Assembly: GCA_963734175.1 (NCBI GenBank)
Contig: CAVTGC010000010.1
Span: 252,976-316,975, forward strand
Source: an uncultured Candidatus Rokubacteria bacterium
GTDB lineage: Bacteria > Methylomirabilota > Methylomirabilia > Rokubacteriales > CSP1-6
DNA: 64,000 nt
Reading direction: 5' to 3'
The notes under the pieces are model-generated. The model saw only the letters and a list, made by a program, of their open reading frames with translations, made no database searches and was not told the origin of the DNA. Both the position numbers and the translations under genes were made by a program. Position 1 is the stretch's first letter. The number at the start of each line of letters is the position of its first letter. Of this stretch, positions 17,532 to 29,569 are shown piece by piece.

Positions 17532-19870
17532 ATGCCGGGAGCAACGATGCTCCGATACAACGTCGCAGCGAACGCCGGTACTCGACGTGCGGTTGCCATC
17601 AGCGGCATCGTGCAGGGCGTCGGATTCCGTCCCTTCGTGCACGGGCTGGCCTGCGCCCTCGGTTTGCGGGGCTTCGTGCGGAATGCCGCGGGTGGCATTG
17701 AAATCGAAGTCGAGGGCGAAGTCGCGGCAATCGAGCGGTTCCTCGCAGAGCTCAATACTCGTAAGCCGCCGCGGGCCCGGATTGATTCGGTGTCCACGTT
17801 GCCCCGCCTCGCGCGCGGCGATGATGATTTTAGGATCGAGGCGAGCGCCGTCGACGTGCAAGGAGCCGTCTCCGTGTCGCCGGACATCGCGACGTGCGAT
17901 GACTGCCTAAGGGAGCTGTTCGATCCCGCGGACAGGCGGTATCGATACCCGTTCATCAACTGTGCGCAGTGCGGACCCCGCCTGACGATCGTCAGGACTG
18001 CTCCGTACGATCGCCAGCGTACGACCATGAGCGGGTTCGACATGTGCGCGCAGTGCCGCGCCGAGTACGATGACTCGCGCGACCGACGCTTTCACGCCGA
18101 GGCTATCGCCTGTTCGTCGTGCGGGCCGCGTCTGCGGCTCCTCGATGGTGCAGGCCGCCTCATGCACTCCCAGGATCCGCTTGCGGAGGCGATTGCCGCG
18201 CTGCGAAGCGGTGGCATTATCGCGGTGAAGGGGCTCGGAGGCTTTCACCTCGTGTGTGATGCCTATGACGTCGCTGCAGTGTCGGAGCTGCGCCGGCGTA
18301 AGCTGCGCGACGAGAAGCCGCTCGCGCTCATGGCGCGCGACCTCGCCGCGGCGGGTGAACTCGGCGAGATCTCCGACTCGGAGCGGCGGGCGCTGACGCT
18401 ACCGGCGAGGCCGATCGTGCTCTTGCGAGCACGATCGGATGCTCCGGTAGCGACCGCGGTGGCGACGGGGCTCGCGGTTCTCGGGGTCATGCTGCCGTAT
18501 ACCCCCGTTCATCACCTGATCCTGAGCGACATGCCCCATGCGGTGGTGATGACGAGCGGCAACCGCTCCGGTGAACCGCTCGTCCGCGAGGATGCGGAAG
18601 CGTCGGCCCGCCTGGCCGGCATCGCCGACGTCGTGCTGACGAACGATCGGGGGATCGAGACCCGGTGCGACGATTCGGTCGTTCGGGTCATTGGCCCTGG
18701 AATTTCATGGGTGCGACGATCGCGTGGCGAGGCCCCGCGGGGACTGTCGCTCCGCACGCCATTGGCCCGTCCCACACTGGCGCTCGGTGGCCATCTCAAG
18801 GCCGCGATCGCGCTTGGCGACGGACGGCGCGTGGTGCCCAGTCACCATCTCGGGGACCTCGACGAGTACCAGACGTATCGCGCGTACACGGACGCCATCG
18901 CACACTACCAGCGGCTGTTTCGGATCGCGCCACAACGCATCGTCCACGATCTGCATCCGGATTACGCCTCGACGCGATACGCCATCGAGCTTGCCAAGGA
19001 AACGGGTATGGAGCTGCTGGCCGTCCAGCATCATCACGCTCACATGGCGAGCTGCATGGCCGAGCATGGCTTGGCGGGGCCGGTGATCGGCGTCTGCTTC
19101 GACGGCACCGGCTGGGGCGCCGACGGCGCGATCTGGGGCGGCGAGTTCCTGGTCGGTGACGACAGCAGACTTCCGGCGCGCCGCGCATTTCAGCTACGTC
19201 GGTATGCCCGGCGGCGAGGCCGCCGTTCGCGAGCCGTGGCGCATGGCGGTGGCGCATCTCATCGCACGCCGGGGCGGCCGTCGAAACGCCCATCGCTGCG
19301 CGTCGATGCCGGACGCCGACGCACCGTGCGAGCGAATGCTCGAGCGAGGCTTCAACGCGCCGCTGACGTCGAGCGCCGGGCGGCTGTTCGATGCCGTCGC
19401 CGCGCTGGCGGGAGTCTGTGAGCGCGCCGAGCTATCGAGGGGCAGGCGGCCATGATGCTGGAGTCGCTGGCCCGCGGCGTCAGGCCGGCCGGGGCGTATC
19501 CCTTCGAGCTCGCCACCGGGTCGGATGCGCTGGTGATCGATCAGCGGCCGCTCATCCGAGCGGTCGCGGCCGACGTGCGCAAGGGCATCGGCGCCAGCCG
19601 TCATTGCCCGCCGATTCCACTCGACGATGGCCGAGGTCATCGTCGCCGTGTGCGAGCGGATCCGCGCCAGCGAGGGCGTCGATCGGTGTCGTCCTGAGCG
19701 GCGGCGTGTTCGTGAACGCCATCCTCGCGCGGAGAAGCGAGCGACGCGTTGCGAAGATCGGGGTTTCATGCCTTACCAGCACGTCAGCGTGCCCGCCAAC
19801 GACGGCGGTCTCTGCCTCGGGCAGCTCGCCATCGCGGCGGCGCGCGACGCGTCGGAGACGCGGTCATCAC
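17532..19870 (+). pseudogene. hypF: [NiFe]-hydrogenase maturation carbamoyltransferase HypF, frameshifted near 19150, 19450 and 19620
   Basis: Acylphosphatase motif (IVQGVGFRPFV), two zinc-finger pairs (CDDC…CAQCGPR ; CAQC…CSSCGPR), a YrdC-like region (IIAVKGLGGFHLVCDA), and a Kae1-like carbamoyltransferase domain. C-terminal segments (…FSYVGMPGGEAAVREPWRMAVAHL… ; …NDGGLCLGQLAIAAA) lie in other frames. Confidence 0.85.
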
Positions 19871-19872
19871 TG

Positions 19873-20125
19873 ATGTGCCTCGGCATCCCTGGCCGCGCTG
19901 GTCGAGACCTTCGCGAGCACGACGTGCTGATGGGCAAGGTCGACTTCGGCGGCGTGACGAAGCGGGTGTGCCTCGAGCACGTGCCCGACGTCCAGCCTGG
20001 CGACTACGTCCTCGTCCACGTCGGCTTCGCCCTCACGCGACTCGACGAGGCGGAAGCCGGCCGCGTCTTCGAGTTCCTCGAAGCCGATGAACCAGCTCGA
20101 CGAGCTGAGCGAGACCTCACCGTGA
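19873..20125 (+). CDS. hypC: Hydrogenase maturation factor HypC, with a possible 1-nt indel near the 3' end
   Basis: MCLGIPGRAGRDLREHDVLMGKVDFGGVTKRVCLEHVPDVQPGDYVLVHVGFALTRLDEAEAGRVFEFLE… The neighbouring frame ends …NQLDELSETSP*, with its TGA overlapping the hypD GTG (GTGA). Confidence 0.75.
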
Positions 20126-21245
20126 AATACCTCGACGAGTACCGCGACGGCGGCCGCCGCACGGGCGCTCGTCGGCGCCATCGCGCGCGACGGTGACCCG
20201 GCCGTGGGTGATCATGGAGGTCTGCGGCGGGCAGACGCACACCATCGTCAAGTACGGCATCGACGAGCTGCTGCCGCCAGGCGATCGAGCTGGTCCACGG
20301 GCCCGGGCTGCCCGGTGTGCGTGACGCCGCTCGAGATGATCGACCGCGCCCACGCCATCGCCTCGCGGCCGGACGTCATCTTCTGCTCGTTCGGCGACAT
20401 GCTGCGCGTGCCCGGCTCGCGACGGCGATCTGCTGTCCGCTCAAGGCGCGCGGCGCGCGACGTGCGCGTCGTCTACTCGCCGCTCGACGCGGTCGACCTC
20501 GCCGCCGCGAACCCGGAGCGGCAGGTGGTGTTCTTCGCCATCGGCTTCGAGACCACGGCGCCCGCCAACGCCATGGCGGTCTGGCTCGCGCGCCGCCGCG
20601 GGCTCGACGAACTTCAGCGTGCTCGTCTCGCACGTCCTCGTGCCGCCGGCGATGACGGCGATCCTGCAGTCGCCCGACAACCGCGTGCAGGGCTTCCTCG
20701 GCCCGGGCCACGTCTGCACGGTCATGGGCTACGGCCGAGTACGAGCCGATCGCCGCAGCGCTACCGGGTGCCGATCGTGATCACCGGCTTCGAGCCGGTC
20801 GACCTGCTGGAGGGCGTGCTCATGACCGTGCGCCAGCTCGAGGCCGGACGGGCGGAGGTCGAGAACCAGTACGCCCGCGCCGTGCGGCCGCGAGGGCAAC
20901 CCGGCGTCGCGCCGGCTGCATCGACGAGGTGTTCGAGGTCTGCGACCGGCAAGTGGCGCGGCGTCGGCTCGATCCCGAAGAGCGGCTACCGGCTGCGCTA
21001 CGAGTACCGCGCCCACGACGCCGAGCGGCTCTTCGAGGTCGGACGACATCGACGCCCGCGAGTCGCCGCTGTGCATCAGCGGGCAGATCCTCGAAGGGCT
21101 CGAAGAAGCCGCGCGAACTGCCCGGCGTTCGGCAACGAGTGCACGCCCGAGCGCCGCTCGGGCGCGACGATGGTCTCGGCGGAAGGCGCGTGCGCCGCGT
21201 ACTACGCGTACGGGCGCCATCGCGGCGCCGCGCCATGTCGCGGCA
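20122..21245 (+). pseudogene. hypD: Hydrogenase maturation factor HypD with multiple frameshifts
   Basis: Begins VKYLDEYRD…. Conserved blocks are spread over three frames: …VCGGQTHTIVKYGIDELLPP… ; …[41 protein letters not shown] ; …[17 protein letters not shown]… ; …[14 protein letters not shown]… ; …[41 protein letters not shown]… ; …PAFGNECTPE…. Confidence 0.8.
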
Positions 21246-28445: not shown

Positions 28446-28779
28446 GCTCGCCATTGCCGAGGAGGTCGTCGCGCTCGTGGCTGCGCGGACGGAGGGCGCG
28501 CGCGTCACGCGCGTGGTGCTCGAGATAGGCCGTCTGTGCGCCGTGCTACCCGACGCCATGCGCTTTTGCTTCGATCTCGCGACGGAGGGAACAGCGGCCG
28601 ACGGCGCGCGAGCTCGAGATTCTCGAGATTCCCGGCCGGGGCCGCTGCCGGGGCTGCGGCTCCGAGGTCGCACTCGATCGGCCCTTCGGTCGATGTCACT
28701 GCGGCGGCAGTGACCTGGAGTGGCTGACGGGCGAAGAGCTTGCATCAAGGAGATCACCTGGCTGATGGAGGACGTCTGA
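28438..28779 (+). pseudogene. hypA: Hydrogenase nickel-insertion protein HypA, with one frameshift near 28610
   Basis: VHELAIAEEVVALVAARTEGARVTRVVLEIGRLCAVLPDAMRFCFDLATEGTAA… / …LEILEIPGRGRCRGCGSEVALDRPFGRCHCGGSDLEWLTGEEL…. GGAGGG lies 11 nt upstream of the GTG. Confidence 0.8.
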
Positions 28780-28780
28780 C

Positions 28781-29569
28781 ATGTGTCGTACGTGCGGCTG
28801 CTCGCCCGTCGGCGGACGCCGGGTCTGCGGACCATCCGCATGGACATGCGTACGATCATCACCATGACCATGATCACGGATCGCCCGTCGAATCCCGCGC
28901 GCGTGCTGACCCTCGAGCAGCGCGTGCTCGCGCGGAACGACTGGATGGCTGCCGCCAACCGTCGATGGCTTCGCGACCGGGGCATCGTGGCGATCAACTT
29001 GATGGCAGGCCCCGGCGCCGGCAAGACGACGCTGCTCGAGCGAACGCTCCGCGATCACGGGGCAGCCATCGATTTGCTCGTCATCGAAGGTGATCAGGCG
29101 ACGGAGCACGACGCGCGAGCGGATCCGGACCGCGGGCGGCGCAGGCGATCCAGATCAACACCGGCGCGGGCTGTCACCTCGATGCGGCGATGGTCGCCGA
29201 GGCGCTCGATGAGCTGAAGCCGGCGCCGGGAGCTCTCGTCGTGATCGAGAACGTGGGCAACCTCGTCTGTCCGGCCCTCTTCGATCTCGGCGAGCACGTC
29301 CAAGGTGGTCGTCACCGTCGGTGACCGACGGCGACGACAAGCCGCTCAAGTATCCCCACATGTTCCGGGCGAGCGACGTCGTCCTGCTCAACAAGATCGA
29401 TTTGCTGCCGTATGTGCAGTTCGATGTCCGGAGCTGCGTTGCGCGCGCACGTGAGCTGAGTCCGCACGTCGAGAGTTTCGAGGTGTCGGCGACGCGCGGC
29501 GACGGGATGGTCGCGTGGTACACGTGGCTCGCACAGCTACGCCCCGACTCGGTGCCGGGATGGCCGTGA
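28781..29569 (+). pseudogene. hypB: Hydrogenase nickel-insertion GTPase HypB, with multiple frameshifts
   Basis: MCRTCGCS… ; His-rich stretch HPHGHAYDHHHDHDHG ; …VLTLEQRVLARNDWMAAANRRWLRDRGIVAINLMAGPGAGKTTLLERTL… ; …[21 protein letters not shown]… ; …VVLLNKIDLLPYVQFD…. Confidence 0.8.

Follow-up and report, generated by a model that had tools for sequence, protein, structure and literature searches.

Frameshifts across a Rokubacteria [NiFe]-hydrogenase gene cluster are very probably assembly or consensus errors rather than gene decay

Genuine pseudogene decay, as seen in reductive genomes and in recently host-restricted pathogens, leaves many adjacent genes disabled by frameshifts. Single-base insertions and deletions (indels) that arise naturally in bacteria are mostly due to homopolymer slippage and are biased toward deletion. 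Single-base frameshifts in conserved genes are also found in metagenome-assembled genomes (MAGs) made from Nanopore reads with Flye and Medaka (PMC12313526). Here, we discuss a [NiFe]-hydrogenase gene cluster at positions 17532–29569 of a 64,000-nucleotide stretch of DNA from an uncultured Candidatus Rokubacteria bacterium (GenBank assembly GCA_963734175.1, contig CAVTGC010000010.1, positions 252,976 to 316,975). We refer to the whole of this stretch as “the window”. Most genes of the cluster are interrupted by single-base frameshifts, and a first, sequence-only reading took the uneven distribution of these shifts to argue for the real decay of an unused hydrogenase, with local low-quality assembly as the alternative. 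We conclude with high confidence that the frameshifts are assembly or consensus errors over an intact, selectively maintained cluster, and not gene decay.

Group 1h hydrogenases (formerly group 5, “actinobacterial-type”, Hhy/Hof) are oxygen-tolerant, high-affinity enzymes that include HofG of Ralstonia eutropha. This protein (5AA5_C) is the top solved-structure match of the window’s corrected large subunit, which aligns with it over residues 4–565 at 1142 bits; other hydrogenase groups score ≤158 bits. The plus strand between 17.5 and 29.6 kb reads hypF-hypC-hypD-SIS-hypE-hhyS-hhyL-orf183-DUF5947-orf378-hycI-hypA-hypB, followed by a hybrid PAS-GAF histidine kinase gene. The full hyp maturation set (hypF, hypC, hypD, hypE, hypA, and hypB) and the endopeptidase gene (hycI) are present. 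L081, a metagenome contig from the European Nucleotide Archive (ENA), and many soil MAGs share the order of hypFCDE, hycI, hypAB, and the conserved hypotheticals, and there is no notable difference from known group 1h clusters. Its sequence marks the operon, structural and maturation genes included, as that of an ordinary group 1h [NiFe]-hydrogenase. The best named HypF matches are from Isosphaeraceae and Gemmataceae, with 60–64% identity, and suggest that a relative of the Planctomycetota is the probable host.

There are several ways in which the frameshifts become visible. First, Pfam searches find the domains of individual cluster genes scattered across different reading frames (three for hypF). 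Second, when the open reading frames (ORFs) of 80 related genomic loci are run against the window by tblastn, the high-scoring segment pairs (HSPs) of one reference protein jump from one frame to another, in the order 3, 1, 2, 3, 1 for the large subunit. Third, a purpose-written frameshift-aware protein-to-DNA alignment with seven intact reference clusters from different phyla yields 68 event clusters, nearly all of them one extra base in the window. Fourth, the in-frame N-terminal 539 aa of the window’s HypF, used as a query, found an intact 772-aa HypF with 91% identity on L081, where the whole cluster lies in identical order with all genes intact. A single blastn HSP connects window positions 17343–29924 with this contig at 87.7% identity. 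Relative to L081, the window has 71 one-base insertions, 19 one-base deletions, and one two-base deletion 3′ of position 19168; longer indels are few and are located at gene ends or between genes. Frame-breaking indels between 19168 and 29720 number about 93, of which 71 are one-base insertions and about 22 are deletions, meaning that the earlier count of at least 25 shifts was borne out but too low. A second independent contig, L083, which has 87% identity and came from a metagenome scan with DUF5947, confirms every site from 27149 to 29140. The homologue-based survey of shifts covered the window outside 1–13.8 kb and 32–37 kb. A self-trained codon-usage Viterbi frame caller mixed up strands in GC-rich DNA and missed closely spaced shifts, and served as a pointer only; a plot of GC at third codon positions (GC3) was too noisy for frame calls.

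Since the reference contigs come from metagenomes and are only 87–88% identical to the window, one could suppose that the window is correct and that the indels stem from misalignment or from faults in the references. However, the references have canonical full-length ORFs and the window does not. The seven further intact references, from different phyla, put the shifts at the same positions, and L081 and L083 agree site by site. This concordance already refutes the idea, which we regard as hardly credible.

The genes of the cluster are as follows. Indels are counted relative to L081, and “corrected” refers to sequences from which indels were removed by reference to L081 codons before protein-level tests.

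hypF (carbamoyltransferase), 17547–19873, plus strand: 11 frame-breaking indels, all in the last ~700 nt; corrected protein of 772 aa; placed by Pfam domains and, codon by codon, on the intact L081 HypF (772 aa).
hypC, 19873–20125, plus strand: three indels (insertion at 19897, deletion at 19913, insertion at 20086); the raw ORF continues into hypD.
hypD, 20122–21248, plus strand: 21 indels, the highest density of any gene, with one of the extra bases at 20423; the corrected protein gives a full-length match to NCBIfam TIGR00075 (493 bits; cut-off 193).
SIS-domain (GmhA-like) gene, 21245–21836, plus strand: nine indels.
hypE, 21833–22882, plus strand: eight indels; the corrected protein has the C-terminus PRIC and matches TIGR02124 over profile positions 1–332 of 332.
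[NiFe]-hydrogenase small-subunit gene (HhyS-like), 22879–23898, plus strand: about 14 indels, including an extra base at 23105, of which part of those in the C-terminal tail may be genuine divergence; the N-terminus, MNDPIESIDVLWITAGLSCDGD, has no RRxF motif, i.e., no twin-arginine (Tat) signal.
[NiFe]-hydrogenase large-subunit gene, group 1h type, 23902–25674, plus strand: nine indels, including an extra base at 24785; corrected protein of 587 aa with the L1 motif RICGICGDNH and the L2 motif DPCLPCGVH (CxxC, nickel-binding).
orf183 (conserved hypothetical), 25671–26222, plus strand: no indels.
DUF5947 gene, 26219–26815, plus strand: no indels.
orf378 (conserved hypothetical), 26812–27949, plus strand: a single one-base insertion at 27149–27152; corrected protein of 378 aa.
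hycI-type maturation protease gene, 27946–28445, plus strand: insertions at 28028 and 28153; corrected protein of 165 aa, 95% identical to the intact P0241 and P0242.
hypA, 28438–28779, plus strand: four indels (insertion at 28608; deletions at 28740, 28758, and 28764–6).
hypB, 28781–29569, plus strand: eight indels, among them those at 28804, 28897, 29117, 29140, 29300, and 29315; the corrected protein passes TIGR00073.

The claim that these genes can be read only by hopping between frames stands for most of them, but not for orf183, the DUF5947 gene, or the first 1636 nt of hypF, which have no indel; every event in hypF lies 3′ of 19168.

Could a disused hydrogenase have been pseudogenized very recently, with real frameshifts accumulating in its genes? 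All maturation and structural genes but two are broken, indel density peaks inside the cluster, and the presence of insertion sequence (IS) elements in the window suggests that the genome may be in flux. The disabling mutations of a pseudogene cluster are indeed there, in the form of about 90 indels, but relaxed selection is not. No stop codon occurs in about 4100 corrected codons of 14 genes. Stop-creating changes make up 2.6% of the possible point substitutions in the cluster genes, and with only three neutral substitutions per natural indel, about seven stops would be expected; the probability of finding none is 8e-4. Compared with L081, there is no deletion >2 nt inside cluster genes. Relative to L081, the ratio of nonsynonymous to synonymous substitution rates (dN/dS) comes to 0.084 in the large-subunit gene with its 9 indels, 0.12 in the small-subunit gene with 14, and 0.14 in hypD with 21; across the frameshifted structural and hyp genes, it ranges over 0.08–0.19. 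The highest values (0.29–0.36) are in the indel-free hypothetical genes, and the lowest are in the most frameshifted genes. Corrected proteins are 80–93% identical to those of L081 at the amino acid level and full length, with the hallmark catalytic motifs all present, in agreement with the earlier observation that conserved motifs are intact; HypD, HypE, and HypB clear their NCBIfam equivalog cut-offs end to end. Some 90 indels without a single stop or sizeable in-gene deletion, in genes with dN/dS of 0.08–0.14, speak against pseudogenization. In this the cluster differs from genuine pseudogene decay: nonsense codons and larger deletions are absent, and dN/dS is not raised.

The spectrum of the indels is a second point of departure from decay. 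Insertions outnumber deletions 3:1, and nearly all events are exactly 1 nt. The inserted base is C or G in 59 of 71 cases, and in 60 of 71 it is unlike both of its neighbors; in 5000 simulations of random insertion, this number averaged 31.8 and never exceeded 45. Nearly a third of the insertions (22/71) convert GG to GCG or CC to CGC (null mean 4.9, maximum 14). The sequence-only reading had placed some shifts in homopolymer runs. However, the cluster holds seven runs of ≥5 identical bases, and the nearest indel to each of them is more than 3 nt away; homopolymer slippage is rejected as a cause. The shift that had been tied to the run “aaggggga” (27170) maps to 27149–27152, 20 nt 5′ of the run. 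The marks of natural mutation, i.e., homopolymer slippage, deletion bias, and mixed sizes, are not seen. Because an excess of insertions and an avoidance of homopolymers are the opposite of known bacterial slippage, the spectrum speaks against natural decay.

Proteins that are perfectly conserved after frame correction would also fit real frameshifts that are bypassed at the level of expression, whether by programmed ribosomal frameshifting, transcriptional slippage, or RNA editing. However, such a system would have to act at about 90 sites with ~70-nt spacing that lack slippery homopolymers and any common recoding motif, on both +1 and −1 events, and at sites that are missing in close relatives. 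Programmed frameshifting was dropped because the sites share no motif. We know of no bacterial system of this kind, and expression-level bypass in any form appears extremely improbable.

The distribution of the indels along the DNA is indeed uneven, as had been noted, with 12.2, 0.4, and 8.4 indels per kb in successive blocks. The layout, with the affected genes outside the cluster, is as follows.

Clean stretch, 17532–19167: no indels; the first 1.6 kb of hypF.
Dense block A, 19168–25400: 76 indels, 12.2 per kb, GC 0.70.
Clean block, 25401–28027: one indel in 2627 nt, 0.4 per kb, GC 0.66; spans the 3′ end of the large-subunit gene, orf183, the DUF5947 gene, orf378, and the first 80 nt of hycI.
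Dense block B, 28028–30270: ~8 indels per kb; spans the hypB/kinase boundary; 28028–29924 holds 16 indels, 8.4 per kb.
Hybrid PAS-GAF histidine kinase gene, 29571–32300, plus strand: open ORF of 909 aa with compensating shifts at 29595, 29720, 30114, and 30130.
Short-chain dehydrogenase (SDR) gene, 15804–16322, plus strand: unrelated to hydrogenase and split over two or three frames.

The dense and clean blocks track position, cutting through genes, and do not track gene function. They spare parts of the hydrogenase cluster and reach genes outside it, i.e., the SDR gene and the kinase, which argues against pseudogenization; the indels here differ from those of genuine decay in being biased toward insertion, in lying outside homopolymers, and in not following functional units. 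Thus, the step from unevenness to the decay of an unused cluster fails: the blocks ignore the hydrogenase unit, there are no stops, dN/dS is low, and the spectrum is unnatural. In the kinase, the PAS domain match ends abruptly at the shifted region; the frame is restored by ~30265, and no shift was detected beyond ~30.3 kb. Since the 909-aa ORF hides compensating shifts, an open ORF in GC-rich DNA is no evidence that the sequence is correct. In frame translations of the SDR gene with stop codons masked as X, positions 1–69 of the adh_short profile match in one frame and positions 123–180 in another, and by eye the NNAG motif is in the third-frame translation. The earlier remark that sporadic shifts occur elsewhere is upheld by this gene, whose split suggests another indel-dense stretch 5′ of the cluster. 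It had also been stated that other regions, including both kinases and the IS copies, are free of frameshifts over 2–3 kb. This is true of the IS copies, since for both IS elements substitutions are the sole differences between copies, which align without gaps, but not of the 909-aa kinase ORF. Elsewhere, two other kinases, the paralogous ABC-type binding proteins, and the rve integrase each give full-length domain matches in a single frame.

Two further observations concern hypF and its 5′ flank. Positions 17532–19167 are closer to L081 (6.8% mismatches) than is the remaining cluster (about 12%), which could mean that this stretch is more strongly constrained, has recombined, or came into the assembly from another origin. 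Just 5′ of hypF, at ~16570–16680 on the plus strand, there is a match to only the first ~35 residues of PF01315 (aldehyde oxidase/xanthine dehydrogenase hammerhead domain); the gene may be truncated here, or the DNA may be damaged in this place as well.

A link to sequencing technology emerges from related loci. We aligned an intact large subunit to the 80 loci, of which 48 are from Nanopore-only MFD-LR (Microflora Danica) MAGs and 32 are from short-read MAGs or isolates. Frameshifts in hhyL occur in 8/48 Nanopore-only loci and in 0/32 short-read or isolate loci (one-sided p about 0.013). The affected loci (hhyL region, about 9700–11500) are L002, L012, L016, L020, L049, L052, L062, and L076, with one to four frameshifts each; the most affected, L052 and L076, are higher-GC Planctomycetota bins. 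Their frameshifts comprise 11 insertions and 2 deletions and are mostly single C/G insertions outside homopolymers, including G[C]G contexts, e.g., gcggtgcgCgggagt. Assembly of the MFD-LR MAGs used Flye --meta followed by a single Medaka round, and their authors screened low-coverage MAGs for Nanopore-associated errors (PMC12313526). These MAGs share with the window the single-base frameshifts in conserved genes, the excess of insertions, and the non-homopolymer C/G context. There are two differences: (i) the density in the window’s dense blocks is ~12 per kb, compared to one to four events per 1.8-kb gene in the Nanopore-only MAGs; (ii) the errors discussed in the published work are linked to homopolymers and concern low-GC archaea (PMC12313526), not insertions that are GC-rich and outside homopolymers.

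Within the 80-locus set, the same type of insertion occurs only in Nanopore-only MAGs, which is a further point against pseudogenization. It also bears on the idea of a real but unusual local mutation, e.g., through error-prone repair or patch synthesis, that added C or G at GG or CC over multi-kb patches in one strain. The non-random insertion context and the block layout fit such a process as well as they fit a technical cause. However, the same context in unrelated Nanopore-only MAGs of other phyla points to the method and not to the biology of a strain. To our knowledge, no mutational process of this patch-wise kind has been described, and we consider it very unlikely.

An independent assembly bears on the 3′ part of the cluster. 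A 3756-bp Logan contig (run ERR11571147) encodes exactly the orf183 and DUF5947 products of the window (381/381 aa), two proteins that are only 80–84% identical to those of L081. Its 3′ genes are single ORFs of 378 aa, 165 aa (HycI), 114 aa (HypA), and at least 191 aa (HypB, which runs to the contig end). Gene coordinates equal those of the window with offsets of +1, +2, and −3, exactly as the removal of the indels predicts. A near-identical assembly with intact orf378, hycI, hypA, and the start of hypB would weigh against pseudogenization, and the lack of the insertions in this contig, judged by gene lengths, also argues against patch-wise mutation. The contig does not reach the 19.2–25.4 kb block. 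A homologue search with corrected HycI and HypA returned nothing above 95%, and a scan of genome collections with a large-subunit fragment found no identical genome, the best match having 89% amino acid identity. Look-ups of the exact products of four window ORFs (17532–19421, 25155–26222, 29571–32300, and 37329–38450) gave no match on record.

Together, the absence of stops, the low dN/dS, the odd spectrum, and the blocks that ignore function mean that the decay reading is not supported; we consider recent pseudogenization to be highly improbable, though somewhat less so than the other alternatives. Local low-quality assembly, which the sequence-only reading had held in reserve, is favored instead by the spectrum, the blocks, the lack of decay, and the likeness to Nanopore MAGs. 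We envisage that spurious single C or G bases would have been inserted outside homopolymers, often as GG to GCG or CC to CGC, at an indel density of ~1%. These errors would lie in positional blocks at ~19.2–25.4 kb and 28.0–30.3 kb, with further shifts at ~15.8–16.3 kb. The cause is most likely a long-read-only (Nanopore-type) assembly, in which the consensus of the dense blocks may have come from very few reads or from badly called GC-rich signal, with the neighboring stretches and the multi-copy IS elements presumably well supported. That the extra bases are instead physically in the DNA, by patch-wise C/G insertion at GG/CC or with correction at the level of expression, such that the operon lies in about 90 fragments, is in our judgment a very remote prospect.

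Several points weigh against a technical origin. First, Nanopore errors are usually described as homopolymer deletions, unlike the indels here. Second, we infer the technology and coverage history of the window. Third, GC content explains the block pattern only in part. The GC of the window ranges from 60% to 71% in 2-kb windows, and the number of indels per 500 nt correlates with GC (Spearman 0.60, p = 0.002); despite this correlation, some GC-rich bins are clean, and GC content is rejected as the sole cause. Fourth, the identity of the Logan contig and the window across the indel sites is deduced from gene lengths and positions alone. Fifth, seven variants of corrected HycI and orf378 had no exact match in the protein collection, so the Logan contig may represent a near-identical strain and not the same genome. 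Lastly, no near-identical independent copy of the 19.2–25.4 kb block was found; the best match to corrected HypD has 88–89% identity.

If the frameshifts are errors, the biological import is small: the high-affinity hydrogenase belongs to a well-known type and is most likely functional in this organism. Taken at face value, the record has two consequences: the lineage would be scored as having lost the oxidation of atmospheric H2, and dozens of false pseudogenes or truncated proteins would enter databases. Open ORFs offer no proof of integrity, as wrong frames stay open for hundreds of codons at 65–70% GC. The non-homopolymer GG to GCG and CC to CGC signature could serve as an automatic flag for such blocks; such frameshifts are found in about one-sixth of the Nanopore-only MAG loci.

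The window contains several repeated elements outside the cluster. One IS element is present in two 1523-bp copies, at 12287–13809 and 39661–41183, that are 100% identical and in direct orientation. It encodes an rve-type integrase on the plus strand, and a longer ORF on the minus strand has no Pfam family. Beside each copy is a segment of 78% identity in inverted orientation (13807–14220 vs 42942–42527). A second element of ~1.18 kb is present in three copies, at 37266–38451, 44819–46004 (inverted), and 59806–60985, which are 99.4–99.6% identical with substitutions only; it has a 373-aa plus-strand ORF with no Pfam match. Near the start of the window, a perfect 139-bp direct repeat (992–1130 and 1128–1266) is almost tandem, with a 3-nt overlap, in a region that the codon model scored as non-coding. 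Lastly, four tandem paralogues of an ATP-binding cassette (ABC) transporter substrate-binding protein (PF04392) lie at 47420–51355 on the minus strand and are ~77–82% identical over stretches, with a PF04392-related fragment at 34219–34439. The paralogues adjoin an 834-aa triple-GAF histidine kinase gene at 51824–54325, also on the minus strand.

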